Source: Lingula anatina (taxonomy: Eukaryota > Animalia > Brachiopoda). Taken from it: DNA of 64,000 nucleotides. Of this stretch, positions 8,061-54,764 are shown in pieces. The DNA lies in NCBI GenBank assembly GCA_051362555.1, contig CM120640.1, positions 744,001-808,000 of the forward strand, read 5' to 3'. Both the position numbers and the translations under genes were made by a program. Numbering within the stretch: position 1 is the stretch's first letter; every line of letters starts with the position of its first letter. A model generated the notes under the pieces. That model had not been told where the DNA came from. It saw only the letters and a program-made list of their open reading frames with translations, and did no database searches.

Positions 8061-8280
8061 GAAATCAAAGAAGAGATAGAACGAGAAAGTCGACAGGAAC
8101 ATCACAAGGAATTCGATTCCTTTATCTTGTTTCTATTAAGCCATGGTACCAAAGGTGCTGTTTACGGAACTGATGGCTATCCATTGAACTACGACACAAT
8201 CAAAGCTATTTTGAATAACCAGAACTGCCCTGGCCTAAGGGGTAAACCGAAGTTGATTTTTATTCAGGCTTGCCAGGGAA
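8061..8280 (+). CDS. Caspase exon, p20 catalytic region
   Basis: ag|EIKEEIERESRQEHHKEFDSFILFLLSHGTKGAVYGTDGYPLNYDTIKAILNNQNCPGLRGKPKLIFIQACQG|gtaagt; catalytic His (SHG) and Cys (QACQG); phase 0 to 1. Confidence 0.95.
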
Positions 8281-8771
8281 GTAAGTAACCGTATGAGTAA
8301 CACGTGTTTGAATGTCTGTGTTGTAAATAATAGATGGAGTAGATTAAGACCTTTGCAGGGGGCTGTTAAATCCAAATAAAATAAAGCAAGATTTTCGTTT
8401 TAATTCAAAAAAGTACTGGATATGAATGAAACAAGTCCATAGAGCTTGAACATGGGTACAATCTCAAAAATATGTAATAAAGTTTCTTTTGGGTCACTAC
8501 AAAAAGTTCATTGTGCATGTTTTATCATGATATATTTAAAGAGCATAAATAAATTCCATATAAACTTGTGAATTGCAATTTCAGTAGTTTATGATATTTG
8601 TTTCTCGAAAAAGAAAAGCATGAACTGATTCCCGTTTCTCAATTCGAAAATCAGTGTTCAGTTTGTCCCTCCATTTGTCAAGAGTGTTTTAACACTTTAT
8701 TAAAATAAAGATATCAACCCTGTGTCACCCTCTTAAAAAACAATGGCGCTTTTTCATCTGTATTTACCCAG

Positions 8772-8936
8772 AGAAAAAGGACAGTGGGGCAGTCCTAGGC
8801 GAGCAAGCAGTTCAACAACCGCAACAAGCACCACCTACAACTAACCCTGGCGATGATGTACCGGATGCGCCAGGTGACAATACGCAGCCTGATCCGACTA
8901 TGGCCGATATTCTCTTGGTCCAGGCGACAGCACCAG
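8772..8936 (+). CDS. Caspase exon, intersubunit linker and start of p10
   Basis: cag|KKKDSGAVLGEQAVQQPQQAPPTTNPGDDVPDAPGDNTQPDPTMADILLVQATAP|gt; phase 1 to 1, in frame with the previous exon. Confidence 0.92.
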
Positions 8937-11900
8937 GTACTTTGCGTAATTTTTAATATATTTTTCCCATTGGAGGATGACGCAGTAGGTAGAAATGGAC
9001 GCCAGAGTTTTTTATGTGTGGATTGACGTGTGGATTATTCGTTTGTTTATATGTTTGTTTTTTTGTTTTTTGTTTTTGTTTGTTTGTAAATTAACAAATA
9101 TCGCCATTCATAATTGTTTAATCGGCAGCATGCTAGCTGACCACTCTTTGTCCAACCAAAAGCTATTGTAAAATTAAAAGGTAGTAAGAAATCCAAAATA
9201 CAAGTAGGCTTTATTGTTGACACACTCAATTGTCCTAGTAGCCCAATAAAACAAAAGATATACAGTTTTCATTGTCGACGCAAGCCATTGTAAGTTACTC
9301 AGGAAGCCAAATATGCCCAAAATTTACTTGTATGGGATGACCGTGTGCGCGCTTTTGTTTTGGTGTGTAAACCATTTGAATCGGCTTTTTGCCTCCAAGG
9401 GCACTTGAGGGCTTAAATATAGGCTGTGTCCACTGCGTGCCTTAGCTTGTATACCCACTTAATAAAACAGTCCAATAATGCAATAAAGAGGAGGGGGTCT
9501 TACTATACCTGTAGCTCGCTATCTATTGTTAAACGTGACTGTTATTATCTCTCGAACAAGCTTAAACCATGCCTATACAATTACTGTCTCCGGCTGCCGT
9601 TCAGAAACGCCATGTCGAACATATTTTGCTACAGTGATGAACATGGTACACTAGCGACTTGTTTTAGATCACTCAAGAAAAAATGCATACGTGCGACACC
9701 ACAGGAAAAACAATCAAGTATGCATCTGATCCATTAATAGTAATTGCACAGTGCATGTTACTAGACCTTTGTCCTAACTCAGTAGTTAGGAATAGGATGT
9801 TTGGATAAAAAGCTTCTATTCAACTCGCTTAGACCTAGGGCGAGATGCTACTATCATCCGATGAAACACGTAACTGAACCCTCTACCTGAACCTGAAGTC
9901 CCTTTAGCTGAAACAAAAACTGCCCCTTGAACCTGTCCATTTTTTATCGTCAAATGATTTGTGATTTCATTGAACGTCTTTGATCGAAAGCTTTCAAGTG
10001 ACAATAACCGAACCTTGTGTTGATTATTTATTAAAGCGTAATTAAGTTTATTCATCATGATCTATTTTGTAAACAATACTTGCCAAGATTGTGCTTGGAT
10101 TGATCATCGTCACTATTTAGCTACTCGCCTATAATGCGTGCTGAACGACAGACAACTTAAAAATATTATCTGTGTAACTGTGCAAATGAACGCATGTAGT
10201 TAAAAATAACGAAGCTGGCATTTAATCCATCGAACACATTTATATTTGTCCTTTTAAAACCAGTGTAAGGTTAACGCCAAATCAAAGCAAGCCTTGCTGA
10301 CTGGTTTTGTTTAAACTGTGGTATATTAAGTAAAGCTAAGTAAAGCCTGTTTTTACTTCGCAGTGTTCATCCCAGCCATAAAACTGCATGAAGGATAACA
10401 AGACTCCGTAGCCCTGTGCTTCAGGTTTCCAGGAGTCCCGTATAACACAATAATATCGAAGAGTATGGTCTGAGAGTAATACATATATGAAGCCGTGTAT
10501 GAAAGATTTTACAAATTAGAAATTCAAGAATTTAAACATGCTAAGTACATGCACATCACTTAAGTCATTTCACAAAAATCGCATCTAATTGTTTAGATTA
10601 ACCTTTACTTTTATCGATCTAATCACGTTGTCTCAACCAACTAAAAGAAATATAGTGAACATAAGGAAAAGTAACACGTTTACATGCAGGCGAAGGAGTT
10701 ATACTTCAATATTAATCGCGAACAATATCAACAGCGACTCAAGACCGTTGCCTGTCTTTCACACTTTTACACAAACACACGAAGGTTTAATAAAGGGAGT
10801 CGCGGCGCGATATCTATCTCTTTCATTCGAACAAGCAAAGGGCTGACCCGAAGTAAGCTTTCATAACTAATGCCCTTTTTATTGTATATTGTAATTACTC
10901 TACTTGCTCGCCTCCATTGTCTTGTAAAAGTGACATAAAATGTGTTATATTCTCACACGAGTTGAAAGAACTTTGCATAACTCCTTTGCCTTGTTGCATA
11001 ATGTCTTTCTCAAGGTTATAATCAGTGTGAAGAGGGTGCCTTGCCTCATTTAAAAAGGGTGTTGTTCTTCACACTGGTTGTTGCTTAACTTATGCCAATC
11101 TATTATGTACCAATATATGGTTATAATAAATCGCCATGATTATGACATTAATGAACATTGTGTATCAAACGTTTTGATACGATTTAAATAAATGGACGAG
11201 GAGTATTACGGTATTAGGTAAACTTCGCCCTGCTATATAAATTAACAAATGTTGCAGATTGTAACAAAAAAACAAAAAAACTTTCTTATAGTGTTTTATG
11301 ACATATATGATTTACACATTTGATAGTGAAACACTGCTCGACTTTAACGAATCACCTGACGTAAACTGTCTACCCACGCTCGCCGAAAAAAACTGTTTCT
11401 TTTAATTTTGAAATGAATTGCTTTTAAGGCAAAGAAGTCCATTAAACCTTTTAAGACTCATTGTCATTGTACAGCATGTTGTCATCTATATTTAAAAAAG
11501 TTTTTTTTGTACTCCGCTTTCATGGGGGATACCTTAGGTTGAGGTTATAATTACGTCGCTCGCCTATGCTACTGGAATATATATTTAAAGACAAATTAAG
11601 CTTTGTAAAGTCCCTATTGTCACACACCATAGATACCTAATTTTGTCTTGAATGAAAAAATAGCCTCAAATTATCGTTTTGTGCTTAAACCTTTCATTAC
11701 TTGAACCAAGATCTGTACTATAGCTACCAAGACGTACATTCATCAAGTTGGGTCTGCTGGGGGAGGGGAGCATTTAAATGATAAACGAGGAAGTCTACCT
11801 GCAAAAGCAGCAGCAGTGGTTTAAATAATCGCTATCTAGACTCCTTTTTCTTTGACAGCAACATAAAAGTGTTTAGGGAGAAAGTCACACAAAGACCCGA

Positions 11901-16103: not shown

Positions 16104-18289
16104 GAATTCATATCAGAATATTTTATCTATCGCAATAAGTGATATGTCTGGCATATATAGCATATATTCTGATATAACATTATTCATACAACTTATTTGA
16201 TCCAGATTTAGTTCACGTGTATCTTGATGGAATGATTTAAGCAAGCAGTTTTCTAAGAGCTTTATTTTAAATTGTAAATTTTTAAAGAACTTTATTTTAA
16301 ATTAATGTTTTTACATTCCCGTCCTTCTGCTGAAATGAACAGATTTCTTATTGTTTCATGAATAAAATAATTATAAAAATCCCTTCTCCATACAATGTTC
16401 TTCGTTTGATAATTATCCTTCTGATGAGCCGTAGGGCTTAAAGGTTTAATGAATTGAAATTGAATCCTTGTTGAACAGTGAACGAAAATAAAGGCAGTCT
16501 CAAGAAATATGTTAATGGAGAGATAGGAAGATGGTGATCTTATCGGGACTCTCAATTTACCTGTACGTTGCAGTAATTAAACTGTTAGCTTACATGGCAG
16601 CTCTGATTAAAAGTGTCACCTGAAAATCTTTTGTCCGACTTAAACTTTCAAGATGTGCCAAGTTTGATTTCAATCACGCTCCCTGTGGCAACTGCCGATA
16701 CGAAACCAGCACCTGACAACAGTGAAATTATCATCCCAAGAGGGAATCTAAAGCACAAAGATGTCTGCTTGCCAGCTGTCCAAAGTTGGTAAGATAATAG
16801 TACAGTTTAAAAATATACGAAACCCTACACCCTGGAACTGATCACAGTATTAAGGAATGTGCTTTTGTGCGACTACATGTAGCCCTATTTCTACAATTAT
16901 TATCATCATTGAATAATAAGACTTTGCCCACCACCAAATAACTGAAACATTACAGAAAGAAGGTTCCGTTAAGATGTTATGTCGTTGGTGTGATCTGTAA
17001 GTTTGATGTTCATTACATAGGATTGGACGTTGCTTTACCGGGTAAAAAAACCCACAATACTCTTAAAATTAGACTGCGCTAAATAGGGTATCGACTAGTT
17101 AGCAAACTAAAATCAAGGAGGGAGGGATGTGCTACAGAAACGGCATAATTACGGATTACTATTAGCACCTCTTTACTATCTAGAATTGTACACCATACTG
17201 ACTCTTGTCAAAGCCGACACAGGCTCTAAATATTGTAATACAATAGATGTAGCGTAACCCCCCCCCCCTCACCCCCACGGATAATGACTGGCCTGTAATT
17301 ATGCATTTAACAAAGGTAGTGTTACAGTGATATTCACACCTTAAGCCTCTGGCGATAGTCAAGCAAGCAGAACAAGATATAAAACCTCCTTCACTATAAA
17401 CTGAGTCACACAACAGTGGTCAAATTCCTGCTTAAATCAAGACGGTTACTCCAGCACACTTTCCCGCCATTTTGCATTAATTTGACACATGTAGTTGTAC
17501 GTGTAGTGTATAATATCAACGAAGTGCTGATTCAAGTGATTGGCTTAAAAAACCGGAAGCTAGAGGAAATGAACCAAGCGTTTACCTTGGCACAAATGGC
17601 CTTCGTTAAATTTGTAGGCAGTGAAACTTATTACGAGTTTTCGTGAAACTTATTACGAGTTTTCGCATTTATGTTACTCCGATTGAACAGTATAAGTCGG
17701 ACGTCGGTGAAAAAAAGGAAATTATTTTTGGTTTAAATTTTATTTATTTATTTATTTTTATTACATTTTAAAGTCGGCTCACTGACTCACTTAGTCAAAG
17801 TTATGCCTGGGTTGCATCACAGTTAGCGGGAAACTGGACCTGCAGTATTATAGACCACAATACCGTGACGTATCACCGACTCGTTGACAAAGGTATCATT
17901 TACAAGAAATCAGTAAATCAATGTGAATTACTCTTAAACATCCCATTCTTACCAGGGCAAAGGGTCGCGTCGCAGCGTAACAGAGGACGATTTAATAGCC
18001 CACAATTAAGCGGGATCATATATCACGCCTGTTTTCACACATGATTGTGTTGTCGTAAGGCGAGAAACACCCCGCCGTCACCCTGTTTGCATAAGCCCAC
18101 CCCTTCTTACTCATTGCTGCATGTGTGTAAGATGTACGTAAGATGTGAGTAAGATGTACGTAAGTCGGCATTGTCCTTTAGCCTACGGACTTTCACACAA
18201 TTCTTTTGTCCTCTTAAGGGGCGTACGTAAGATAACTTAATCGTTTTTGAAGTAAGCATATCCGTAATGTCATCTTCTCTGCACAAAAC

Positions 18290-19727
18290 TGTATAAAGCA
18301 TTTTTTGTCAATTTGGAAAAATTTAACATCTGATCCAGCCATTCTGTACTGTGTGACTGGGGCTACTTTGGAGTTTACTGAAACACTTTGTCAGTTTCAA
18401 GAGCCCAGATCTGTAAATTTTGATCAGGCAGAACGAGAGATAATTGATTCAGAAATTATCAAATTGTTACAAAAGGTGTAATTGTACCTTGTGAAGATGA
18501 GTCAGGGCAGTCTATTTCACCAATTTTTATTCGACACAAAAAGGATGGTTCACACAGAATGACTTTAAATTTATAAGAGCTAAACTCTTATATTGAATAT
18601 CATCATTTTAAAATGGACAGTGTTCAAACATGTTTAAGCCTTATAACTCAGATTGAGAATTGTTATATGGCATCATTAGACCTTACAGATGCCTACTATA
18701 TACAGTACCTGTCTCTAAACTACATCAGAAGTATTTGAAATTTAGATGTAATGGGAAATTGTACAAACATGTTTGTTTGCCTAATGGTTTGGCTTCAGCA
18801 CCCAGGATTTTTACAAAACTGTTTAAACCTGTGCTTTCACATTTGCACTGTAAGGGACATGTTTTTTTTTGCATATTTAGATGACCTTTACTTACAGGCT
18901 GATAATTACGAGAGTTGTGAGGATAATGTACAGACTACTGTTCAGTTATTGTCAGACCTTGGTTTTGTGGTTCATGAGGAAAAATCACAATTTTTCCTGT
19001 CCAAAAAATTCATCATCTTGGGTTTACCCTCAATTCACAAGACCTTACAGTGAGCCTTACCTCTGATAGACAAGGAAAATTATCTCATTATTAGGCCAGA
19101 TGATTAAAGATCCGTGCTGCACTATAAGGGAAGGGGCAAAACGTATTGGATCATTACAGCCTGTCACACCAGGAAGGATCACAGAGCACAAAAGCTGCTT
19201 CAGCGTGTAAAGCTTTTGCAGCTAAAGTACCTCTTGCAACAGTGATTAGGACAGCAGGATGGTCAAACAGTAGCACATTTGCTAAGCTTTATAACAGAAG
19301 CACAGGGGATACTTGTGATTTTGGTTCTTCTATTTTACATGACATTAGAAATTAATGTGTTCTTAATGACATTATGACAAGTTGTGTTATTGTGTTGTAG
19401 TCCTTTGTTTAGGACTAATAAAAGTTTAGAGATCTAAATTTGCTTATGTTCGTGTTCATGTCAGATGAGAGTTAAATTTTTTGATTAAACGAGACTTACC
19501 TGTAAGTTTGAATGGAATTAAACTCTCATCTGGATCATTTTAGGGATTATAAGCCCACCCTTGCCAACCAGTTTATGCTGTCTGTTTTGCCATGAACACT
19601 CACCTTCCAAGTTTGAGCTCTACTCATGCGCATGCAGTTCTCATATAATCCCTAAAATGATCCAGATGAGAGTTAAATTCCAATCAAACTTCAACTTACA
19701 GGTAAGTCTCGTTTAATCTTTAAATTT
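18290..19727 (+). mobile_element. Internally deleted, degenerate DIRS-like tyrosine-recombinase retrotransposon
   Basis: RT fragments CLPNGLASAPRIFTK and AYLDD; YR C-terminus VPLATVIRTAGWSNSSTFAKLYNR; inverted terminal blocks ~19480-19552 and ~19645-19720. Confidence 0.85.
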
Positions 19728-21253: not shown

Positions 21254-21774
21254 AGTAAATTAATGCCTTTTAAATGAACAACTTAACGACTCTTGAACTC
21301 TGCATAAAATTGTATAAATGCACGTTTCCTTTCAGCGTGGATTATTAAGTATATTAGTCAGTCAATGATAGTGTTAATGAAATTTTCACATCCAACCCTC
21401 CTGACCGCTTCAAGAAAACCCCAACCCTGTCCGTTGTTCAGTCTCCCAGTCTGGACGGAAAACACGTGTAGAAAAGAACGTGTATTCCATTTTTGCGAGT
21501 AAAAAATATTTGGGGTGCTATAAACCTTCATTGTTGAGTAGTAATTTATTTTGGTTCAGGTAACTTCATATTCCTTACCAATAAGCCATGGTTTGAACAC
21601 TTAGACTGGAACTTTTTATTCTATCAATAAGGTAGCTAGGTTGGTCAGCTAATACTCGGCAAACACAGAACATTTCTTAAAACACTGCCCTGATTGACAA
21701 CCTAAGTATTGAGTATATACTTAGATTGTCATAGTTTTAACAAATCATTTAAAAAACCATTTCTCCCTTTTCAG

Positions 21775-21884
21775 ACTACGTATCTTGGCGAAACGAGAAA
21801 AGTGGGACGTGGTTTATTCAATCCATAGTCAAAATATTTACTCTTCATGCACACGAATGTGACATTTTGCATTTGATGCTGATT
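21775..21884 (+). CDS. Caspase exon, p10 substrate-binding region
   Basis: tttcag|DYVSWRNEKSGTWFIQSIVKIFTLHAHECDILHLMLI|gtaagt; phase 1 to 0. Confidence 0.95.
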
Positions 21885-22121
21885 GTAAGTATTGAAACAA
21901 CGTAACATGTAATGTTGAAGTGAAGGCATGCTAATTTTAACAAAATACCGTAAAATTAAAATGTATACTAGTAGCTGCCAGAAAAAGGTTTGCCATAAGC
22001 TTTGTCTTATTGGTCTAATGTTATCAAAAATTATTATGTACAATTGAAAAAAATAACAGAATGACTATTTGAATGTACTTTGACAATCCAAAGCTCTTTA
22101 TTTCATATTTTATTTAACTAG

Positions 22122-22245
22122 GTCAACCAAGAGATATCTCAGATGCAAACTAAAAAGGGCAATGTACAGGCTTCAGTTTTGGATTGCAGCTTACGAAAGA
22201 AATTTTTCTTCAACATAACTCAACGAAGAAGTCTATCTTCTCGAG
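22122..22245 (+). CDS. Caspase exon, end of p10 with open phase-1 donor
   Basis: tag|VNQEISQMQTKKGNVQASVLDCSLRKKFFFNITQRRSLSSR G|gtacat. The 3' boundary is inferred; unspliced read-through would stop at ~22310. Confidence 0.88.
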
Positions 22246-24080
22246 GTACATTTAGTAGATTTCTTAAGCTCCGATGGTGCTTTTGTCGTAAACTTAAAAT
22301 ATACTTCTAAGAAGTATAATACAAAAACATGCATTAATATTTTTATACTTTATAATTATTAAGTGCATTAGTCAGTCAATGATAGTGTTAATGAAATTTT
22401 CACATCCAACTCTCCTGACCGCTTCAAGAAAAATCCAACCCGGTCGTCGTTCAGTCTCCCAGTCTGGCCGGAAAACGTGTAGAAAAGAACGTGTTATTCC
22501 ATTTTTGCAAGTGAAAAATATTTGGGGTGCTATAAACCTTCATTGTTGAGTAGTAATTTATTTTGGTTCAGGTAACTTTACATTCCTTACCAATAAGCCA
22601 TGGTTTGAACATTTAGACTGGAACTTTTTATCCTATCAATAAGGTAGGTTGGTCAGCTAATACTCGGCAAACACAGAACATAATTAAAACACTGCCATAT
22701 GGTTTATATAATTGAGACCGTTATAATATATTTATGTTAACCTTTTAAAACGTTCTGTACCAGTATTTGGTGAGTAGGAGCAGTCAAATTGATGCATCCT
22801 GCCTTGTGAACTTGACCATCAAAAAGAGGAGATCGCCAGTGGCTACTGTTCTGCAAACAAACCATTTCCTTCAATGATGTCAAGAATAAATTACCTTTAT
22901 AAACGGCCGTAGAGACCTTTATATTGGTTCAAAGATGTGGATTGTTTCACATGGAGAAAGATTTATGCTATTTATATGTATGTTCTTACACAGATGTGCG
23001 TGTACATACAGGCCTTACCTCTGTCTGTCATCGCCAACATCGGCTCCGTCGCTGTGCACTTTCACTGTTATAACAAAAAGTGAAATAGCATTTTACAGCA
23101 CGAGAGTCTCATGATATCTGGAAGTGAAGTCAATGGAAAGTTTAGCAGATCTAGAAAACCGTCACTCAGGCGTGGATTTTGATATTTTACCAAAATTGTT
23201 ACAGATTTATGGCAAGTGTCAGGAAATGAAGACTGGTAATGGAGAATGCAATTTACCCCAAGATAATTCATTAAATATGAATTTTTGAGGGAAGTTCCTT
23301 ATTGGGTACCTTTTAATACAGATTACAGAATACACAGGAGCCTCCATAAATCCAAATACACAGGCTTATATCTCGGGCCTTACATGCATGTACATGTTCC
23401 TGACCAATCAGCACTTTCAGACTAGCCAAGGCAGGATATCGGAGGTACCAAGCTTAATAAAGAAATGTCACTAATCACTGAATCACGTTTCCACAATGTA
23501 ATTATTATTTGAAAGAAGATATTTGTGTAGTTTTTACCTTTGATAAATAAAGTTGGATTAGTATACAAATAAATAAGGATTCTAGAACAATTCCCCCCCC
23601 CCCCCCCCCCCCCGCGGACAATTCCCACCCGGACGATTCCCCCCAAGAAATATCTATTTATAAACAAATATAATGAAAAAATCATAAAGTTTAAAACATT
23701 TCATCCATTTTATTAATATTTTTAGTGTGATAATGAAACTTCATCATGAAACAAATTATTTTATAACAAATTCCTTTTTCATTTAGTACTAGTACAGAAA
23801 GTTTTATCAAACATCTAATCAAAGTATAACCATCTATCCTTCATATAAAGGTTGGGTAAACAGGTTAACAGATATTCTATGAATATTTTATTGTGGTGGG
23901 TAGTGGTCAAGCAATTAAAAGTGACAAATAATCAAAGGGATATCTGGATAAGCGAGAAAATCTGTTTACCCCACCTCTCCCTAGAGATGCACCTTGATTC
24001 AACACTAAATCAAGGGGGGGGGGGGGGGGGGGGCGTAATTAAGCAATTTTAATTTAACTTTTAAAAAAGTAACAGTTAAT

Positions 24081-26646
24081 TGTACCACCAGCGTTAGCGC
24101 TGGCGGTACACATGGTTTTAGTCCCGTCCAGATCTTTCCGCCGGACGGCTACCGTTACCGCTTCTCCTCCTAGACGGTAAGGGCCCCCGTACCCATCTCT
24201 TGGATTTAGGTCACCTATAATCTCAACTCGTTCCACGTAAAATTTGGGCTTTGTCGGTTTTGGGGTCTAGGTGTGGCACTCATTGCAATGCACCCTTGTC
24301 TAAAAATGGCAAAATTAAATGCTAATTATCTACCCTACGGAAGGAATTATGGGAAAAATTTCTACAGACGGCTTTCCAAAAGTCATATGTGTAGATTTCA
24401 AATATGCCCTTGGATTTGACCTTTGACCTTTATTTCAAGGTCAAACGGGCCAAAATTTTCAAAAAAATTAATTTTTTTACGAAAAAAAAAAATTATTTGC
24501 CCTGTTTTTCAGACACCACACAGACTTAACCAATAATATTATTGGAAAGTGTTACCCTTCAGGTCATCTTTCATCTCTGTGAATTTGGGGTCAATCGGTG
24601 CATTTTCACGGGAGTAGCGGCCATAAGATACCGAAACTGAAAACTGTCTCTAATTCGGGAACTGTTAATGCTAGAGACCCATTCTTTTTTGCATTTTGTA
24701 GAGTATGTAAAGCCCAACACTGGAGGTGGTCTCGGTTTTTTTTTTTGTATTCCATACGGTTTTCGAGTTACACTGTATCAAAAAGTACATATTGGTGGTG
24801 AAAGCAACATGTGCAGTACGGTAATGGATAATAAATTTTGAACTCCGGAAAAATAAAACATAAGGCTTGGCAAAGCAGACAACTTGTGGTCAAAAATGAC
24901 ATTATTTCATCAAATTTGAACATCTGGAACTTCAGAGCACCTCCCATTTCAAGAATTTTGACCAAAATGACCTTTTCTTTATTTTAATTAATTTTTTCTG
25001 TTGGAAATTTATGGCACATTATGGTAACTCCAAAATTATAACATTTAGTCCCTTATATCTCCAAAACTGGCAGAGATAGGTCCATAGTTACTATTGAAGT
25101 TGAATAGGAAGTCATATACTGGCAATCTAAATGTGACCTTAAAATTGACCTTTGACCTACTTTTCACCATGAACTGAACTTTGCAAATTTTGCTTCCCTT
25201 TTATCTCCAAAACTGGCAGAGATAGGTCCATAGTTACTATTGAACTTGAATAGGAAGTCACATACTGGCAATCTAAATGTGACCTTGAAATTGATCTTTG
25301 ACCAACTTTTCACCATGAACTGAACTTTGCAAATTTTGCTTGACTTTTATCTCCAAAGTTACGCTGTATCAAAAAGTACATATTGGTGGTGAAAGCAAAA
25401 TGTGCAGTACGGTAATGGATAGTGAATTTTGAACTCCGGAAAAATAAAACATAAGGCTTGGCAAAGCAGACAAGTTGTGGTCAAAAATGACATTATTTCA
25501 TCAAATTTGAACATCTGGAACTTCGGAGCACCTCCCATTTCAAGAATTTTGACCAAAATGACCTTTTCTTTATTTTAATTAATTTCTTCTGTAGGAAATT
25601 TATGGCATATTATGGTAACTCCAAAATTATAACATTAAGTCCCTTATATCTCCAAAACTGGCAAAAAGTTGCTATTGAACATGAATAGGAAGTCATATAC
25701 TGGCAATCTAAATGTGACCTTGAAATTGACCTTTGACCTACTTTTCACCATGAACTGAACTTTGCAAATTTTGCTTCCCTTTTATCTCCAAAACTGGCAG
25801 AGATAGGTCCATAGTTACTATTGAAGTTGAATAGGAAGTCATATACTGGCAATCTTACTGTGACCTTGAAATTGACCTTTGACCTACTTTTCACCATGAG
25901 CTGAACTTTGCAAATTTTGCTTCCCTTTTATCTCCAAAGTTACGCTGTATCAAAAAGTACATATTGGTGGTGAAAGCAATATGTGCAGTACAGTAATGTA
26001 TAATAAATTTTGAACTCCGGAAAAATAAAACATAAGGCTTGGCAAAGCAGACAAGTTGTGGTCAAAAATGACATTATTTCATCAAATTTGAACATCTGGA
26101 ACTTCGGAGCACCTCCCATTTCAAGAATTTTGACCAAAATGACCTTTTCTTTATTTCAATTAATTTCTTCTATAGGAAATTTATGGCACATTATGGTAAC
26201 TCCAAAATTATAACACTTAGTCCCTTATTTCTCCAAAACTGGCAGAGATAGGTCCATATTTACTATTGAAGTTGAATAGGAAGTCATATACTGACAATCT
26301 TACTGTGACCTTGAAATTGACCTTTGACCTACTTTTCACCATGAACTGAACTTTGCAAATTTTGCTTCCCTTTTATCTCCAAAACTGGCAGAGATAGGTC
26401 CATAGTTACTATTGAACTTGAATGACCTACCTTACGATGAACTTAACTTTGATTGTACCATTTTTAGGCATATATATTTTTTGCATATTTTGAAAATTCT
26501 TGTTGATTGCATTTTTACAGCTTGTCAAGCAGAAGACTGGTGGCTGTGACCCTTATTTTGTGTATGTGGGGGTCTATACGAATGCGCTTGCTCCAGCTGG
26601 TGGTACAATATTCGGAGGTGGTATCGCCTCTCTGATCCTCTAGTTT
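24081..26646 (+). mobile_element. Non-autonomous Helentron/HINE-like element (family A) with internal higher-order tandem array
   Basis: 5' hairpin tgtaccaccagcg-ttag-cgctggcggtaca; subterminal inverted match gctggtggtaca near 26596; 3' hairpin then ctagttt; ~585-bp units at 24768, 25358 and 25939, each with two 146-bp monomers. Confidence 0.75.
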
Positions 26647-32763: not shown

Positions 32764-32956
32764 GAATAGAAATATCACTGGGGACGCTTTTGATGCAATT
32801 TTGTGGTATAAGTCGGGGTTAGAGAATTCTAATTGTGACACTTTTCCCTCAATATGGATCCGGCAGCTTTCATATTTTGCAAGACTTTCTTCAGTTACAA
32901 TTTTCCCAAATGTAATAATAGACCTGTAATGCTTCAAAACATTTTCTTTCTTCCAG

Positions 32957-33220
32957 CCCCAGATGTACTGGAAGATTTTGCAGTGGTATGCAGAGGTTCG
33001 AAACACATGGACATAAAATGGAACAGACCGCGCTGTGTATTTGATCATTTCATTGTCAAATGGCGGTCACAAGATGAGCCAAGGGCATGTGAAAGCACAA
33101 AGACAACAGAGACCCTTCACACCATTGATGGCTTGTGCCCTGGTAACCGATATGAAGTCAGTGTTGCTACAGTCAGTAATAGGATGGAAAGTGAACCTCG
33201 TTTCATTAACCTCCAAACAG
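32957..33220 (+). CDS. FN3 exon 1
   Basis: AG/GT, phase 1-1, 264 nt; IKWNRP...GLCPGNRYEVSV. Confidence 0.9.
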
Positions 33221-34318
33221 GTGAGATTTTAAATATATATAGTTTTCTTTGTCTGTTGGCTTCCATGAAGCTGCCAATTCATATTAAATTTCTTTCAGTA
33301 ACACGAATTTAATAAACTTTGTTCATACAAAACAAACTATGGTCTCCTACTATAAGGGTCCAGTTCATTTTATTACAGATAAGGAGAAAGTCATTATACA
33401 TTGTTTGGTATTTGTGTTCGCCATTTATAGCAGGAATTAAATAGTTTCCAGGACAAGTAAAATTATAGCTTGTATTGGAATGTCTTGAGGTATATAAATT
33501 GCTGCAAGTTAAAATGGAATATGACATCAAATTTGTTGTAGTTAAGTTAATTTACATCGTTATTAAGACAAAGAATTAGTGATTGTGCTTTACGAATTTA
33601 AGAAACTGGCATATCTATCAAAATCTATAAGTTAACAAGTAAAATCGAAAAAAAGCTTGACAAAAATAAAACAACTTTAACTGGTCAAATAACACTTTAC
33701 TACTGTGTTTGTTATTCAGTTAACTTACATTTTTCATTATTCAATTAAACTTACATGTTGAATCTTAACTTACTGTCTTCCAGTCTTTTGACCACTTCCA
33801 TACCAGAAAATTGAATATTAAAATTGTATTCAAAGTTAAACATGTATCTTGCTTAGCTGCTGATATAAATACTGGTAACAACATACAGTTTCTACTATTG
33901 GCAAGCAATTATGCTGTTCTCCCAGGTTTGCAATAATATATATATCTAAAGAAAAAAGGAAGACATGGGACCGAATCCAAAGCCTTGATCACATTGCCCC
34001 CATTCCATTCTTTCTGGCTATACCACCAAAAGGCGATTTAATCAGGTTGTGGTAATATTTTGATGATTGTTATTCCAATTACTTCTCAGTGCTGCACATT
34101 TTCCATGCTTTCTTTACAATTGAAAAATGTCATATTTATTTAGACACCACACATATGGTAGACACTTGTGTATGAAGTGCACATGCATTCACGCCATTAT
34201 CTTTGGAACAGTCAATTGGGATAATTCAAATTATGTACTGTAGTATGACACATTCATGCATTCATTATATAAATAAATATATTTGATCATTCACAATTTG
34301 TTCATTATAAAAAACAGT

Positions 34319-34341
34319 CATTCTTTGCTAGTGGTGCACTG

Positions 34342-34383
<42 letters not shown>

Positions 34384-36452
34384 TAACAAGAATGTAATTT
34401 AAATTTAGATAGCCGACCAAATTCTCATGACATCATTGTTTATGTCTCAATAACAAATCAAAGAAGCTGCATGAGCAAGGAGGATGCTGTTATAAAAGCA
34501 AAATAAGTGAAAAAGCAGAAAATATATCGAAATTACCCTCAAAAAGGCGTCAATTTTTGTGGAATTTCGAGCCTACCTCTATTTAGGAACAGTTTGTTTA
34601 GGATTTGAATGGATTATTGAAGCAGGAAATACACTTACTGCAAGAAGTTATAATACACAGAATGTGCAAATGGTTATTTAAATAAAAATTTATTTGAAGT
34701 CACTGAAAAATGATCACAAAATTACCGTAACTAACGTTACATGCCCTGTCCCAGCCCAATGAAAATTTCATCTAATCCTATCTTTCCGCATTAAAACTCT
34801 TCAATCGTCCAAAGTAGTCTGTCGGTTAGGTTGTGTCACGAAGTCCATGCTAATATCAGTTTTCTTAAGAATTTCACATTTCTTGCTAAACAAGGTCAAT
34901 TTTTCTTCACCGCGTCCCATGTGACATACGTTACACTGAAATTTCAGAGATCGATTTTTATCAGACGAATTTAAAATGCCACATGAAAATTATACATCGA
35001 TAGCGACCTGCTTCCATATTCACTAATTGATGACGTCTCACACACGAATGGCTTCTTTTGCACACTTAAAAACCAGCTCAAACTGGCGTGTGTCCCATTC
35101 TGATAACATGTAATGCAGTGACGCTGTCGAGATCTGATGCAGGGCACAGGTGTAATTCGCTCGATTTAACTGCCACAGGACTGTTTATAGGGATCTTCTT
35201 TGTATGAAGGTGAGAAATACTGAGTTTCGTTTAATTTTTCTTCAATTGTTTCAACATATATGTGTACCGATTGATTATTACCATTCGATAAGTAGGGTGA
35301 CTTCGTCTGAACTTTCGTTTTGCGTCTGTGACACATGGCGGACTAAAGTTCATATTGAACATGGTAACGCGGTGACACCGTTTTCATGTTCTCTTGTTCT
35401 CGAAAACTCAATCATCGAAATTGAATGACTTTTTTTTAGTTTTGTCTTAAATTGAGCTGCTACACTGTATTCAGTGCGTTTAAAATTTAACCATCTGTAA
35501 AAACAGCAATTATGGATTACCGCAACACTAACGTACAGAGACACAATGAAGCACCGAAAATGGGTGAAGAAAATGTGTCCCAGCAATGCGTGTTTGCCAC
35601 TCATAATGCACCGTACTTTGTTTGAATAAGCAATAAACTATTTGTAATCTGAGGTTACTCATTGTTCGTTATCAGGTTCTTTGGATGATTTTTTTTCAGA
35701 ATCCCAAGAATGGGTGCCTTGGTGAGCACAGAGCAGATATCACCAGTGGTCCATAGATGTCAGGAAAAATGTTATGTTACTGAACTTTGTGTTACACTGA
35801 ACTTCATTTTGTTAAATTTTGTATTTAACTGAACTTTATTGTGTTAAAATAATAGAAAATAATAATAATTCTGACAAAAAACTACAATCTGGAAAATTCT
35901 TTAGATCAACTTTTTTCAGTGTGTGTCCCATGTAACAGAGTTACAGTAAACAAAATATGTGCATTATTCCACTGTGTTTGTCAATTCCAATTTAAAAGCA
36001 TGTGAGAGTGATGTTCCCCTCATGATTGAAGTGTGTGTGGATAATAGCAAAAATATTGTTATTATTTACATGATTATAAAAAGTTTTTGTTCCCGCGTCA
36101 CTAACGTTATTGTGTCCCACATATTCACCATTTTTATTAATTATGAAATGTGGATTGAATTCTTCAAAACCAGTTTTAAAGCATTGAGACAACACCCCCT
36201 TATGATTTAAACTAAAACTGAAAACATTCCATTAGACTTTCATTAGTTTGTGCAAAATATATTAGATATTGGATATGGTGGGTAGAGCTGTTCAACTCTC
36301 CTGTGTGCCCTAAAAAGGGCATCTGCTGTTTCCCTTTTCATGAAATGATAAACTGTGATGGTGTAGCTATCACATTGCAAAATTATAGCTTTCCCGAGAA
36401 CGTTTGAAATTTGTGGCCAAATTCAACATTTTGTAACCACTAGCAAAGAATG
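34319..36452. mobile_element. Non-autonomous TIR DNA transposon
   Basis: 17-bp perfect TIR cattctttgctagtggt / accactagcaaagaatg; no transposase ORF; TSD not clear. Confidence 0.7.
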
Positions 36453-36671
36453 TCAGAAATATATATATATATTTGTTCATTCATTATATAAATGTATATA
36501 TTTGTTCATTTACAAAATGGCAATACAATTGCTAATTGGAGAATGGTAATGCACCAACTGCATTGTTGTGATTATATTATATTGTACAATGTCATGATAA
36601 TTTATGTACCAGTACAGAAATGAATTGAATTGAAATGAAATTTATGCAAACATTTTTACCCATTATACCAG

Positions 36672-36935
36672 ACCCAGCACCGATTGAGGATATAAATATT
36701 GAACCTGGGGTTGCCGCTATCAAGTTCAAGTGGAGTAAACCCGAAGGCAAAGTCGATGCTTATCAGCTGCAATTAGAGCCAACCAGTGATTTACAAGGGA
36801 TAAAAATATTTCCTTCTGTAGAAATAGAAGAGGTAGAAATTCCTGGGTTAACCCCTGGAACATTATACCTTGGCAGTCTATGTACCATGCGAAATGGCCA
36901 GCAGAGTAAACATTTTCATTTCCAGTGTTCAACAA
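36672..36935 (+). CDS. FN3 exon 2
   Basis: AG/GT, phase 1-1; FKWSKPEG...GLTPGTLY. Confidence 0.9.
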
Positions 36936-37177
36936 GTAAGTGCAAACTGTATCCATTGACATAGAGACGGTCAATCACTTATTCCGTGTACAATCCTAAA
37001 CTGGCTTTGCAACAACACTGGAAATAGTAAGGTGCACAAGGAAGTGGTTAGAACATTGTAGACAGAATATACACCACAGTTAATGTGGCATCACCGCATA
37101 GTATTTTTCTTTTATGTAACATAGACAAGCTGTTTTTATTATTGTTATTATTATTACTATCATTATTATTATTTCAG

Positions 37178-37441
37178 GACCATCAAAATGTGCTCCCCAG
37201 TGTAGCGAGAGAGGCACCAGGTCTCTGAAAATAAAATGGGAACCGACTGTAGGCAAGATTCAGTATTATGAGGTCCAAATAATCAGAAATCATGAATTTG
37301 TTCGAACTAAGAAAATACCTCGATACAACGACACAGAGACAATGTTTGATGACCTGCTTCCAGGGACTAAATATGAAGTGATAATTCGCACTGTTACTGA
37401 CAATGCAGACACCTCAAGTGACCCATTGGATGTTTATACAG
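37178..37441 (+). CDS. FN3 exon 3
   Basis: AG/GT, phase 1-1; IKWEPTVG...DLLPGTKYEV. Confidence 0.9.
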
Positions 37442-37585
37442 GTATTTTATATTTTAAGATGCTTGTGCTTCCCTTTAAAATACCTATACTAATCTCAATC
37501 ACAATGAATCTGGTTGTCATTAATGATTGTACGTACTTGAACAGACATTCATTGTAATTCCATTGCCTTTTGTATCATGAAACAG

Positions 37586-37843
37586 TTCCAGATGAAGTCA
37601 GTGAAATCAAGATAGAAACAAAGGAAAGACCGGTTACGCTTTCTTGGGAACCTCCATGCGGAAATTGGGAATGTTTTAGGGTTTCTCACTGGAAATACAC
37701 ACACTACTTGCAAATTGACCAATACACAGACAGATGTATGATTGATTTACCCGAACTTGAACCGGGAGAAAAGTATTATGTGGAAATCGCTACTCTGATC
37801 AACAGAACAGAAAGCAAAGTACGGACCGAAACTTTTGATACAG
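37586..37843 (+). CDS. FN3 exon 4
   Basis: AG/GT, phase 1-1; LSWEPPCG...ELEPGEKYYV. Confidence 0.9.
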
Positions 37844-38035
37844 GTACGTGCATTCCTTTAACTTTTTCAGTTGAAAGTGTCTAAGAGAGCTCGTAAAATT
37901 TAAAGTTACGATATATTAATGTTAGAATAACCTCATCCCTCCAACTATGCTTTTATGATTTTTGATGAATCCAACTCCATCACTGTCATTTGATACCCAA
38001 TTAGTCATGTAGTTGTATCGCTTTTCTTTGTCCAG

Positions 38036-38302
38036 CCCCTGCCATGGTTAGAAAAGAAAAGATACAAGTGACAGAAGGAATACAGACTTTTACCCTCAAA
38101 TGGGATCGTCCAGTTGGAAAAGTTGATGAGTATGACATTTTGGTCAAGCAGGAAGATGGCGAATCATTCAATCTTCAATTTAAATCACTCAAACCAAATG
38201 TGGTGATCAATAAAATCATCCCTGGGGTCAGCTACATAATTGAAATCAGATCTTGCAGTGTTAAAAATCAAAGTGAACCATGCTGTATCCATTTACAAAA
38301 AT
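38036..38302 (+). CDS. FN3 exon 5
   Basis: AG/GT, phase 1-1; LKWDRPVG...IIPGVSYII. Confidence 0.9.
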
Positions 38303-38717
38303 GTAAGTATACCAAAAGAAAAAAAAAAAATAAATAAATATAAATAGAATAAAATAAACACACTGAGTCACCACAAAGTAGCCTGTTATAGACTATAAAT
38401 TAGAATTTTTATATTGATTTTTTGTACATATATGTGAAATTTTCAAGTAATTAGTCTTTAGCCAGAGAAACATTAAACCTCCTGGGTTGATATATTGTCA
38501 AAGTATTATTTCCTAGTATTACATTATATGTTCCAAAATTTATGACAGATTTATCACTGTTTGATGCAGTAAAAAGTTTGATCTAACATTATAGAAATAA
38601 TTTTCTATGAGCGCAGTATGTATGATATCCAAATATATTATGGAGAAGGTTACTCGATGTTCTTCTTGGCTACCTGTTTATACTTGATGACATAATGTGT
38701 TACAAAATACATTTAAG

Positions 38718-38990
38718 CACCTGCGCCGCCCACGCTGCAGAGGGGTGGAGTTATTGCCACCAAGAACACGATTACATTGTCCTGGGACCTCCCACAAGGA
38801 AAGTATGAAGGCTATCAGATATTTTGCAAGTTGGATGGTGCTGACACCTGGTCATGTGATTATCTTAGTGCTGGGGTGACATGTTATGAAATAAATGATC
38901 TGCAACCAAGCACCCATTACACCGGTTGGATCCGTACCCTGACCAAAGGGGAATTAGAGAGTGAACATGTGAACTTCGACTGTTTTACAG
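38718..38990 (+). CDS. FN3 exon 6
   Basis: AG/GT, phase 1-1; LSWDLPQG...DLQPSTHY. Confidence 0.88.
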
Positions 38991-39095
38991 GTTTGTTCTG
39001 TAATTCTCAAGATTTGCATTTTATATACACAGCTGTAAGATTAACTATGTTGATAAATTAGCACCTGGTGTAAATATACCTATTTCGTTGTATAG

Positions 39096-39368
39096 AACCA
39101 GAACCTCCACAGCAGTTCTCTTGGCTCAGTGATCGTCGAGAAACAACAACATTGACATTGGCATGGGAGCCAAGTAGAGGCGATATTGAAGGATACACAC
39201 TGATCATCAGGGACACAGATGACAATGAGATCTCTCGTGAAGTAAAACCGAACATCACCAGATACATAGTAGAAGATTTGACTCCAGGCATGATGTACCA
39301 TTGTTTGATCTCCACTATATCACCAGCAGGTGTGAAGAGCAGCAACGTGGAATGCCGTACAAGCACAG
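39096..39368 (+). CDS. FN3 exon 7
   Basis: AG/GT, phase 1-1; LAWEPSRG...DLTPGMMY. Confidence 0.9.
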
Positions 39369-39574
39369 GTTCATATCAGCTATCAATTTTCATTCTAAAC
39401 AGGTTTGATCATACAAGTTTTTTATGCATTTAACCTCATCGTAAAGAAAAACTTTTGGTATGGTATTATTCGGTTAAACGTACCAGTGCATTTTATGAAA
39501 TATTCAAAGTGATGTTTTGAGTATTTTGCTTTAAAAGAAAAACTTTCATGTACGTTATTTCTTCTTGTCTTCAG

Positions 39575-39841
39575 TTCCACAAGCGCCGAAAGTCGGATTT
39601 ATCACAGTAAAACTTTATGAAGGTTCGTATGTGGTGTGTTGGGAAAGGCCAAGTGGTATATTCAAACACATGTCCTTTGAATATTTCCCAAACGACAGTG
39701 AGAAAGATCTGAAAGTGCTGACGTCAAAAGAGAGTCCGTCACCACCACTTTCCATCACCCCTGGAACTATATATGACCTGCACGCTTTCTCTGTAACAGA
39801 CCATGACAAAAGTGACCCGTGTGTATTGAAGTTTACAACAG
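39575..39841 (+). CDS. FN3 exon 8
   Basis: AG/GT, phase 1-1; VCWERPSG...ITPGTIYDL. Confidence 0.9.
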
Positions 39842-40119
39842 GTATGTTTTTATTTGCATCCACAGAATTGAACATTGCATATTTTATCACCAATGTTTTG
39901 CATCGATATCCATTTACATGTGACACAGTATTCAAAATGGCTTATGACATTCACCCAAGGTTTGACATAGCAAATTTTCTGCAGCAAAATACACTGTAGT
40001 GCATTTTGTAGAACATTGGTTTACCATAATCATTGAAATTTTCAGATACTTACATCAGCAGTATCTTTAGTTATTTTAGTGTATCAACCATCTATTATAT
40101 ATACACTTGACTTTTCCAG

Positions 40120-40392
40120 CACCTTCCAAACCTGTGCTATGGCATCAAATGGACATTAAAAGCACGTCAGTCTCCATTAGCTGGGATCCGGTTCAAGCAT
40201 TGTGTAGTTACGAAGTGTCTTGCGAGCAAGCTGGCAACAACACCATGAACCCACAAACAACAACAGAATGTAAATACCAAATAATGAATTTATTACCTGC
40301 CACAAAGTATGAAGTGAGGTTAGCAACCTGTGTAATGGACCATAAAGGGGAACTGCTAAAGAGTGATACAAGCGAATGCACAATATGGACCA
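40120..40392 (+). CDS. FN3 exon 9
   Basis: AG/GT, phase 1-1; ISWDPV...NLLPATKYEV. Confidence 0.9.
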
Positions 40393-40588
40393 GTAAGTCT
40401 GTTTCTGTAATGAATAAGACATACAATGATGTTTTACTAAATAGCAATCTACCTGTTTAACTGAAGAATACATATTCTATTGTGTCTTTCAGAAGGAAAG
40501 TTTTTTGTTATGTCATTATTTCACTGTGACAATCTATCGTGTCAGAATATATCATATCCTGTCATTGAGGCAAGTTATATCTCTTTAG

Positions 40589-40873
40589 ATCCGTCAGCGC
40601 CAAAAAACTTCAAACAGATATGGTCCCAAGTGAACAGGAAAAGGCATCCAACATTAGTTAAGCTGAAATGGGACATGCTACAAGAAGACATTGATCACTT
40701 TGAAATAATCTATGATGCCCAAGGGGTTGGGTGTAGTGTAGTGAATGTCGGGTGCAGCAGAAGGACTGCCGAAATAGTTGGATTAGAGCCTGGGACTGAA
40801 TACAACTGCAGCATTTCAGCTATTTTATGCAATAGACAAAAGAGTGAATGTGCCACATGTGTGGCTTTTACAG
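40589..40873 (+). CDS. FN3 exon 10
   Basis: AG/GT, phase 1-1; LKWDML...GLEPGTEYNC. Confidence 0.9.
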
Positions 40874-40985
40874 GTATCAATATTTGTAATATCTGGTTAA
40901 TATTATAGATTATTATACATCATGTAGAATTATATAGGCATCCCATTGGTCAGTCACCACAGGCTATTTCAAATAGTAAGACCAT

Positions 40986-41202
40986 AGGGCGCATTCCCAT
41001 AGATTTTACATCGATCTATCCCCTAGGAGAGTCTCACTAGATTACTGTCCAATAATCCGGCTTTAATGTCCGTCCTGCCTACTACAAGCTGTAAGGGGGT
41101 AATTAACTTTCATGCCTGCTCGGCTGACAGCTATTTAGCATGAACCCCCAGGGACTTAGGTCGTTTTAGTTGGATCGATCTAATCTGGGGAGTGGGGTCT
41201 TA
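40986..41202 (-). mobile_element. MITE, inverted copy of 19842-20062
   Basis: Reverse-complement similarity over the full length. Confidence 0.75.
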
Positions 41203-41751: not shown

Positions 41752-42153
41752 CACCCGCAGTGCCTGGTACCATTGTTACAGGTACCATTGTAGCAAGTAC
41801 CAAAGGTTTGTACTTGCAATGGATGCCAGCTGCAGGAGCTGTCCATAATTATGCTATCATGTACAGAGTTGTCCAAGTAACCAGCACCGACAATCAAGGC
41901 AACGGCACCTCAGGACCGCAGGCAAAACACCTTCCCTGGATTAGTGACAGTGTTGAACTGGCATGGGAAGAAAATCTAGAAATTCTAGACAATGATGAGA
42001 AAAATGCATCCGATGCAAGATATAAACAAATTGAAACTGTGGAAAGCAAATGCAATTTAGAAAACCTTGTCCCTGGCACAAATTATGAAATCCAAATTTT
42101 TGCCAAAGCTCATGGTTATCCTAGTCTGCCACAACAGCTGACACAAACAACAA
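41752..42153 (+). CDS. FN3 exon 11, with ~45-aa internal insertion
   Basis: AG/GT, phase 1-1, 402 nt; LQWMPAAG...NLVPGTNYEI. Confidence 0.88.
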
Positions 42154-47002: not shown

Positions 47003-47006
<4 letters not shown>

Positions 47007-50522: not shown

Positions 50523-50786
50523 AGCCAGGTAAACCTGGGGAAGTTACAAAAGAAGAGACGGCTACTGCAGAATCAATATCTCTGTCTTGGGGTGCTAGTG
50601 AAGGCAATGTCAGTGGATATGAAATAGAATACGGAAGAAAAGACCGAAACACAAGACAACCACTGAGCTCAAGTACTCCAAATTGTATCATTGATAATAT
50701 ATCCCCTGGTATTCCTTATAGCTACAAAGTGTATGCTATAAGTAATGGATTGAGAAGCGATCCTTCTCAGTTTGTAGCAGCCACAG
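50523..50786 (+). CDS. FN3 exon 12
   Basis: AG/GT, phase 1-1; LSWGASEG...NISPGIPYSY. Confidence 0.9.
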
Positions 50787-52839: not shown

Positions 52840-53136
52840 ATCTTCCATGTCCTGAAAATTTTCGACAGATCCAAAGCGAATTACCCACACGCTCAATACA
52901 TTTGCAGTGGGATGCACCACCATCTATCATGCCAGCTGCTTGGTCATATACGGTAAAGTATCGTCATTTTGGAACTTCCGAAGAATACCACAATGAGGAG
53001 AATGTTACAGTTGAAAGTCTGAAAGTTACTGGGTTAGTCCCTGGCAGAAAGTACGAATTCTCTCTGCAAGTAATTGGATGGAAAGATGCGGTCGGTTACT
53101 CTATTAGCAAAGAGGTGTTTTGCATTGGATCAACAG
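52840..53136 (+). CDS. FN3 exon 13
   Basis: AG/GT, phase 1-1; LQWDAPP...GLVPGRKYEF. Confidence 0.9.
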
Positions 53137-53459
53137 GTATGGAATTTTTTATATTTTTTCTTATTTATTGCAAATCTACCTATTTGGCAACAAATATTTG
53201 ACTACAGATTTATTTTGTGTTAAAGTGAAAATTAGCTTTTTGTCTAAAAGTGTTTACCAGTTTCCTCTTTTGTGAAAGTAGCATGCATATTTTCTATTCT
53301 AGTCGTACAGATTTTGTACAGCAGTGTTTTTGCTCCACTTGGGAGTCAGTAAATTTACTGGGAAAATGATCGAGTGGACCAAACATCTTGACAACATTTT
53401 TATATCGTCACTTCAATGGGCAGACACCATAAATACAAGTACATTTTCTTTCTTCATAG

Positions 53460-53705
53460 ATCCAGAGCCAGCCCACAGTCTAATGTGGGATTTGTCATCC
53501 AACACACTTATCTGGGAGAAACCAGACGGTGATATTGATGGATATGATATCAAAGTTGCAAAAGGAGAGAATATTAAATCATTCCACACAATGACCTGTA
53601 AATATAAAGTGCACACTATTGAAAAGGGAGAAACTTTTGTTTTCAGTGTTGTTGCAGTCAGCAATGGAAAAATAAGCAGGGATATTTCAAAAACAATTAC
53701 AATAG
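53460..53705 (+). CDS. FN3 exon 14
   Basis: AG/GT, phase 1-1; LIWEKPDG...IEKGETFVFSV. Confidence 0.9.
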
Positions 53706-54467
53706 GTAAGCATTTCACTGGAGAGATGTGTTCTTTTCTATCATTATCCAATTGTTCATGACATAAGGATATTCCAGATATTTGGAGTGCACTGTTAAGT
53801 CCCCAAACTTTGTCAGTCAGACTTCACGTAAGGTTAATGTCACGTTAGATAACGTGCCGGTTCTTGGGCCTTAGTGTTGTGCACCCAGCTGATCCAATAA
53901 AACGAACAAGATTCTCATTTGATGCAAGTAGAAATGTAATAGTATCTTTTGGAAATATACAGAGGTTTCTTCTACATAGTAACTGTCAGTCCAAAATGTA
54001 TATAATGATATTGCGAGAGCCAAAATACGATATGATATTACCTTAAAACAGGGCAGCCTTTATAGATCATTCAGGAATTTTAATAACCAGGAAGAAATAA
54101 CACTTGACTGAGGGCAGTCCCTTAAAATTTGTCTCAGGCTCTACCCCAACTCAGTCACTGTGTTTCCTGGAGCATCATTATCCACCCTAGCCTTCAAAGG
54201 CATTTCTAAATTGTATCTCGTGCCAAGTGCCCCGGTTATGATCATTCCCGAATGTTTATTGACTGCCCCCTTCTAATCTTATGTTTGGATATGAATATTA
54301 TTTTAATTTAATTATTCGTGTCAATTATAAAATACCCAAAGTGGTATTTTATACACTGTCCCTGTTTTAACACATTGAAGAAGCTTAAGATATAGCATTT
54401 AATTTACATATAGTACTGATTATATTCTTCTGTTATGACATTGAGACACTTTTTTTATAATTTCTAG

Positions 54468-54764
54468 CACCTGGCAATCCGGAATTTGTAAAAGAAAAAT
54501 TACTGGTGACAACAAATTCAATCACACTTTACTGGACTCCTCCGGGCGGAAAAGTAAAACACTACGCATTATATCATCAACCTTTAGATGAACGCATGGG
54601 AAGTTTGGCACGAATTTGGTATGGTGGTGTAAAAAAGGATATAGTAAAAGGTTGTTTTAAAATATTGGATAACCTTCTGCCAGGAATGAAGTACCGTATC
54701 AGAGTATGTGCTGAGGTTGATAGTGAAAGAGACCAGAAAGGTGATGTGATTGAAGTTGCAACAG
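54468..54764 (+). CDS. FN3 exon 15; the gene probably continues beyond the window
   Basis: AG/GT, phase 1-1; LYWTPPGG...NLLPGMKYRI; donor G|gtatgt. Confidence 0.9.

Follow-up and report, generated by a model that had tools for sequence, protein, structure and literature searches.

In PMC8998645, RIG-I-like receptors with grafted caspase domains are described for Lingula. PMC11463336 reports a ROC caspase in Owenia and assigns the PARP-caspase XP_013395828.1 to caspase-Y; its supplement gives the name Casp.Y1 to a CARD-bearing protein (XP_013403374.2) of the subfamily discussed here. The present text concerns a stretch of 64,000 nucleotides from Lingula anatina (assembly GCA_051362555.1, contig CM120640.1, positions 744,001 to 808,000 of the forward strand), which is called the window from here on. 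It holds a caspase of this same subfamily and an array of 15 fibronectin type III (FN3) exons, in tandem, on one strand and in matching reading phase. The probability that these are one caspase-FN3 gene is put at about 0.57, with the joining splice, from 22245 to 32957, being predicted. Grafting of this caspase onto sensors is already known; an FN3 partner would be new. The original prediction took it that caspases usually end with this domain and have their regulatory domains at the N-terminus. In this lineage that does not hold, as the Lingula caspase-RIG-I helicase proteins, which are of the same clade, have a further domain after the caspase (PMC8998645).

Casp.Y1 and the COR-caspases XP_013381226.2 and XP_013405061.1 are of the same subfamily as the window caspase, with the same FFNIT end. 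Past NITP, these models either stop or go on into unrelated sequence, and they are without FN3 domains, unlike the proposed fusion. In the Lingula CASc-RLRs XP_013415815.1 and XP_013415812.1, a caspase of the same clade is followed by a C-terminal sensor, joined just after the FFPG end. Here a DExD/H helicase, whose ligand class is known, does the sensing, whereas the proposed fusion has an FN3 rod. The Roc-COR-caspases (XP_013407220.1, XP_013401300.1 and the Owenia ROC caspase) and the PARP-caspases are from the same clade of grafted caspases. In those proteins the caspase comes last, preceded by the extra domain, while the FN3 domains of the proposed fusion are C-terminal. On the FN3 side, the 'fibronectin-like' protein XP_013395595.1 (P0162) is collinear with FN10, 11, 12, 14 and 15 of the window, the insertion in FN11 included, and has no membrane helix. 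It is without FN1-9, FN13 and the caspase, and has five extra FN3 domains.

MALT1 is an Arg-specific paracaspase with one Ig domain C-terminal to the caspase fold. It is like the proposed fusion in having a beta-sandwich directly after that fold; the window instead has a QACQG/SWR caspase and at least 15 FN3 domains. A MALT1-type paracaspase identity was rejected on the true-caspase motifs and on the nearest relatives, which are caspases. Separately, the Roc-COR-caspase XP_013407220.1 (P0020) is helical over residues of about 60 to 220. Going by a motif, this region may resemble a Bcl-2 fold; Pfam gives no match there at E 0.001.

The caspase half of the window consists of four exons on the plus strand. 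Exon C1 (8061-8280, phase 0 to 1, Pfam PF00656 at E 4.6e-19) encodes the second half of p20 and contains both catalytic dyad motifs, SHG and QACQG, as expected of peptidase C14A. Exon C2 (8772-8936, phase 1-1) has the Asp-cleavable inter-subunit linker DVPD-A and the start of p10, and is 53-61% identical by tblastn to the paralogues P0001, P0003 and P0156. Exon C3 (21775-21884, phase 1 to 0, PF00656 at E 3.2e-6) continues p10 with the S1 arginine in SWR. Exon C4 (22122-22245; tblastn 64-67% to P0003 and P0156) has the end of p10, 11 more codons and a candidate phase-1 donor, GAG|GTACAT. The original prediction that these four splice in frame stands: the ends are AG/GT and the frame is stop-free, with small corrections to the boundaries. 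Its description of the caspase as intact is right for SHG, QACQG, linker and p10. The first half of p20 and any prodomain are not in the window, where tblastn gives no match for them in 1-8060. The N-terminal half of p20 would also hold the other S1 arginine, the first of the two, which the paralogues carry; its exon here is upstream of the window. By its motifs the window protein is a true caspase, with Asp-specific proteolysis as the predicted activity.

Exon C1 is 77-81% identical to Lingula P0001-P0003, and across the domain the identity to the two COR-caspases is 64-66%. A tree was made by a quick method without bootstrap from 76 full caspase domains plus the window, omitting fragments such as P0001, P0002 and P0005. 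In this tree the window caspase pairs with the two COR-caspases with a Shimodaira-Hasegawa-like approximate likelihood ratio (SH-aLRT) of 100. An all-Lingula clade with SH-aLRT 97 includes COR-, Roc-COR- and PARP-caspases and the caspase-RIG-I helicases. The same quick tree groups the window caspase with the PARP-caspase XP_013395828.1 (P0157) at SH-aLRT 97, which places it, judged by sequence, in the caspase-Y group; the likeness to Casp.Y1 was judged by reading, outside the tree. The caspase module of this clade has been shuffled repeatedly. Since the clade holds COR, Roc-COR, PARP and caspase-RIG-I fusions, grafting has a precedent on either side of the caspase, including the C-terminal one. 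The closest paralogues carry COR or CARD at the N-terminus; no Roc or COR domain is matched inside the window. The ESM Atlas has no usable match for P0003.

The FN3 exons are all on the plus strand and are given here with their Pfam fn3 scores. They are FN1 at 32957-33220 (42.2 bits), FN2 at 36672-36935 (30.6 bits), FN3 exon 3 at 37178-37441 (45.7 bits), FN4 at 37586-37843 (28.5 bits), FN5 at 38036-38302 (30.9 bits), FN6 at 38718-38990 (37.8 bits), FN7 at 39096-39368 (48.2 bits), the divergent FN8 at 39575-39841, FN9 at 40120-40392 (41.8 bits), FN10 at 40589-40873 (29.7 bits, alternative acceptor at 40598), FN11 at 41752-42153 (32.2 bits), FN12 at 50523-50786 (47.2 bits), FN13 at 52840-53136 (37.3 bits), FN14 at 53460-53705 (34.2 bits) and FN15 at 54468-54764 (36.1 bits). 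As originally described, this is an array of 15 phase-1 exons: every length is divisible by 3 and every exon is phase 1-1 (15/15 for both). The Pfam cut-off is passed by 14 of them; FN8 has no Pfam match but aligns with the other 14, sharing their W and P-G-x-x-Y columns. The repeats are strongly diverged from each other, with a mean identity of 20% and a best of 28%. No further FN3 frames were found in the window with a profile built from the 15 exons. Since FN15 ends in a phase-1 donor, the gene extends beyond the window. Together with the missing first half of p20, this puts both gene ends outside it.

Joined, the 4 caspase and 15 FN3 exons give 4,813 nt, or 1,604 codons, with 0 stops, and all 19 exons have AG/GT ends. 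The gap between C4 and FN1 is 10.7 kb and mostly repeats. This is comparable to introns within the two halves, of 12.8 and 8.4 kb.

The top match of the 15-exon profile is P0162, with identities of 59% for FN10, 53% for FN11, 75% for FN12, 57% for FN14 and 61% for FN15; FN13 is not in this model. P0162 starts inside the FN10-like domain and stops just after a repeat, five FN3 domains beyond the FN15-like one, so it looks like a partial model, cut at both ends. It contains no caspase, membrane helix or phosphatase domain. The other matches of the array are generic FN3 proteins at 25-38% identity; exon FN7 as sole query found no homologue among 46 candidates, and the ESM Atlas, queried with P0162, gave generic FN3 clusters only. 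FN11 carries a loop insertion of about 45 residues, acidic and polar, that P0162 has as well. It could be a flexible hinge or a cleavage region.

The cysteine content of the array is 2.9%, against 0-0.5% in five extracellular FN3 arrays. Two proteins used as composition controls, P0265 and P0277, combine Cys-rich FN3 arrays with an AIG1/septin-like GTPase, according to precomputed Pfam annotation, and would by inference be cytosolic; they are at 2.2% and 3.0%. P0162 is intermediate at 1.4%. The peak 19-residue hydropathy is 1.56 in the array against 3.28 in a receptor phosphatase, and no leader or membrane helix was found in the array within the window. A cytosolic location would fit both the Cys content and this lack of a leader or helix. 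N-glycosylation sequons number 11 where 7.8 are expected, and 4 of the 5 extracellular controls are likewise not significantly enriched. Sequon counts do not separate extracellular from cytosolic arrays.

It had been claimed that at the end of C4 the frame stays open up to GAG|GTACAT at 22245, and so it does. Read through, it meets a TAA at 22308-22310, which makes the plus-strand tail 22246-22310 an alternative caspase end. With a score of 2.78, this phase-1 donor exceeds 9 of 18 true donors when these are scored leave-one-out. Open frames taken at random reach an equally good phase-1 donor before a stop in 2,476 cases out of 58,687 (4.2%). The proposed fusion is favoured by a stop-free model, by donor strength and by phase; the joining splice itself was not observed.

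The paralogues have something to say about this junction. As far as NITPG, P0003 and P0156 share 571 of 594 positions; beyond it they are unrelated. Three close paralogue models (P0003, P0156 and Casp.Y1) part exactly after NITP. P0003 goes on to a 9-residue end, P0156 has G-K-Q, as expected if a G|GTAAG donor were read through, and Casp.Y1 has D and then a second caspase copy (PMC11463336 supplement). A phase-1 junction yields such a change between G, G and D. Read from protein models only, this implies a phase-1 intron right after NITP in the subfamily. The homologous family donor is missing here, the window having no GT at the NITP spot, and this tells against a single gene. The tail looks like a frame-shifted homologue of the P0156 tail, as 22219-22260 matches it in another frame with 14 mismatches in 42 nt (p 0.018 and 0.015 in controls) and with a spacing of 22 nt where P0156 has 30 nt. 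On the simplest reading, an 8-nt deletion would have removed the old donor after NITP and set the nearby GAG|GT, a few codons further on, into phase 1. To keep that phase would be important with a long phase-1 array downstream, and of little consequence with a short tail.

Reads of four out of nine runs (X1, X2, X4 and X7) were compared with 21700-41000, counting only reads that are at least 90% alike. The resulting tables are dominated by expressed repeats at 23000-31000, which leaves the depth table alone informative. Run X7 covers all eight bins with FN exons and also the bin with C3 and C4, at about 1-10 fold if all of this is exonic. In X1, X4 and X2 the depth is zero in most FN-exon bins. 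Since the threshold excludes reads from paralogues as distant as P0162, the FN3 array region is transcribed. For C4 the result is different: at 22203, all 6 X7 reads carry the letter of a paralogue, with 3 or more other differences each, so there is no evidence that this copy of C4 is expressed. Within the repeat block 23600-31000, the depth goes up to about 1,300, mostly on one strand in three runs that look stranded. This signal probably comes from other genomic copies of the repeats.

That RNA result for C4 already counts against a single gene, and there is more. As a check, junction reads from 22245 to 32957 were looked for, and none is among the joints (15 of 316) and loose ends (24 of 1,982) that were listed, all of which are in repeats. 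The X7 depth over FN1 is about 1, compared with 3-10 for FN2-10. Homologues were searched with C1, FN exon 7 and the 15-exon profile, up to 2,000 residues. The caspase set (161) combines the best 150 of 3,550 matches, many of them fragments, with earlier C1 matches and cluster members; the FN3 set is the best 120 of 178 matches. No caspase match (0/161) has an FN3 match, and no FN3 match (0/120) has a caspase match. The last domain reaches the end of p10 in 77 of 160 caspase matches, a count that excludes two caspase-RIG-I proteins, and none extends more than 34 residues further. By reading, an FN3 array is present in 0 of the 24 Lingula caspases in PMC11463336 Supplementary File 2, and the words 'fibronectin' and 'FN3' are absent from that supplement as far as consulted. 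A caspase is likewise missing from P0162, the paralogue with collinear FN3 domains, with the reservation that its model looks cut at both ends. No animal caspase-FN3 fusion is described in the titles, abstract openings and passages covered by the full-text literature searches, with Gerdol et al. 2018 (on Lingula immunity, and a paper that could describe such a gene) outside their scope. In the passages covered, PMC2575513 has none of the terms looked up, the FNIII passages of PMC7159879 concern bacterial proteins, and those of PMC5336234 concern R3 phosphatases.

All this can be read as two neighbouring genes, a serious but rather doubtful alternative. The caspase would then end at the TAA at 22310 or in a short last exon. 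The FN3 array would be the 5' portion of another gene, which would begin with a short first exon of its own and encode a cytosolic protein; the effector of that protein (a GTPase, a Roc-COR or the next tandem caspase) would be beyond 64000. That no database protein among the matches examined joins the two halves agrees with this, as does the way the closest paralogue models end, 12-17 residues past p10. A phase-1 donor alone does not identify FN1 as its partner, given that in P0003 the splice leads to a last exon of 9 residues; yet no homologue of that last exon was found in the gap, where the best candidate has 11 mismatches in 30 nt. From 22885 onward, after the read-through stop, there are AATAAA polyadenylation words. 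Against two genes stands the donor, since an in-phase one this strong comes up in about 4% of random frames. FN3 arrays fused to a GTPase do exist, in P0265 and P0277. The subfamily occurs in tandem copies, which makes gene models that cross between neighbours a real risk; Casp.Y1, which runs into a second caspase, may itself be such a model. CpG depletion is unequal between the halves, with 23 observed of 29 expected in the caspase exons versus 85 of 185 in the FN3 exons. A short own first exon for the array is possible. The gap 22246-32956 has five first-exon candidates running from an ATG to a phase-1 donor, among them 32161-32194 and 32637-32733; there are TATA-like words too, and ATGs at 32854 and 32929 lie upstream in the open frame of FN1. 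The candidates occur at 0.47 per kb, however, which is chance level, given that six other stretches have 0-1.31 per kb. CpG is sparse in the 1.75 kb of unique sequence ahead of FN1 (observed/expected 0.44, with no CpG-rich stretch), and X7 depth is near zero over 31360-32647, though at low coverage. The original prediction had seen neither a start nor a signal-peptide exon here. The first half of that needs amending for these five candidates and two ATGs; the second half holds, in that reading the candidates and the upstream frame of FN1, without a dedicated predictor, revealed no apparent signal peptide.

Two further explanations were considered. It is improbable, though it would suit some details, that both forms are made or that the link is recent and incidental, with the old donor lost to the 8-nt deletion, most transcripts coding for a plain caspase and a minor share splicing on through a cryptic donor. 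The missing family donor and the frame-shifted likeness to the P0156 tail would agree with this, but at p about 0.02 that homology is modest. That a local 350-bp duplication begins 44 nt past the stop, and that FN1 depth is below that of FN2-10, would also agree with it; but none of the 15 FN3 exons is broken or out of phase, and to stay so they need to be part of a translated transcript. Very improbable indeed is an array that is unrelated to the caspase, an ectodomain belonging to a receptor phosphatase of the R3 type or to a matrix protein like tenascin or fibronectin. The best matches outside Lingula are PTPRH-like and tenascin proteins, but at identities of only 25-35%. There are weak matches to Dep-1 FN3 profiles, and the neighbours given by the ESM Atlas are clusters of generic FN3 type. 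A signal-peptide exon was not found, nor a membrane helix or phosphatase domain in either the window or P0162, both of which stop before the true C-terminus, and the Cys content is far from that of the five extracellular controls.

If there is one caspase-FN3 gene, its product would be a cytosolic caspase of the initiator type, presumably with an N-terminal CARD or Roc-COR domain encoded upstream of the window. Clustering of caspases dimerises the protease through the last strand of p10, and the linker is cut after an Asp. Here the FN3 domains, perhaps 20 in number, would form a rod at the C-terminus that may bind a repetitive ligand or a scaffold. Such binding could cluster the caspase domains and lead to dimerisation and self-activation by induced proximity. 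The linker would be cleaved at DVPD-A and p10 would stay tethered to the rod, which would begin about 11 residues after the last p10 strand, the one that forms the dimer. This can be compared with the clustering by RNA binding that is proposed for the caspase-RIG-I proteins, and may suggest a role in innate immunity or cell death. The cytosolic part of the sensor-effector idea in the original prediction fits the Cys content and an array in which neither a leader nor a membrane helix was found. The other part is less secure: because the closest paralogues carry an N-terminal COR or CARD, the FN3 rod need not drive dimerisation.

Some further features of the locus are given for completeness. A 350-bp direct repeat, present in just two copies in the window (21341-21689 and 22355-22696, 92.9% alike), brackets C3 and C4, the two p10 exons; no decayed second C3 was found downstream of the second copy. 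A plus-strand candidate for a 6-nt phase 1-1 micro-exon at 22764-22769 is unsupported, with a donor score of -0.4 from a scoring matrix that includes two mis-set donors. The intron after FN15 contains a young long terminal repeat (LTR) retroelement at 55053-59696, with LTRs that are 98.7% alike, the same 5 bases on both sides and a single open frame of 1,329 codons from stop to stop. We take it to be of the 'Gypsy' type from its domain order rather than from a profile search. Upstream of C1, the intron contains two inverted copies of an element like a long interspersed nuclear element (2282-7165). They are 94% alike over 1.4 kb, and the element has frames for an endonuclease and a reverse transcriptase. 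At 18250-19720, within the long caspase intron, there are broken fragments like a reverse transcriptase and a recombinase, with inverted ends. These are presumably a DIRS-type remnant, going by their motifs.

If the two genes are separate, the locus is an ordinary caspase paralogue beside an uncharacterised FN3 array. If the splice is real, it would be the third type of direct sensor-caspase fusion in brachiopods, beside helicase and GTPase/PARP, and a testable case of a caspase that is regulated from its C-terminal side. The public 'caspase-2-like' and 'fibronectin-like' models of Lingula would then be pieces of one gene type. A wider reading is tentative, and stands at less than even odds: that the Casp.Y1/COR-caspase subfamily as a whole consists of giant cytosolic receptors with the architecture CARD or Roc-COR, then caspase, then 20 or more FN3 domains. 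Such a family could have been missed because fragmented assemblies split it into those two kinds of model. If this reading were true, the diverged FN3 rod would be a variable recognition surface that is wired directly to a protease.

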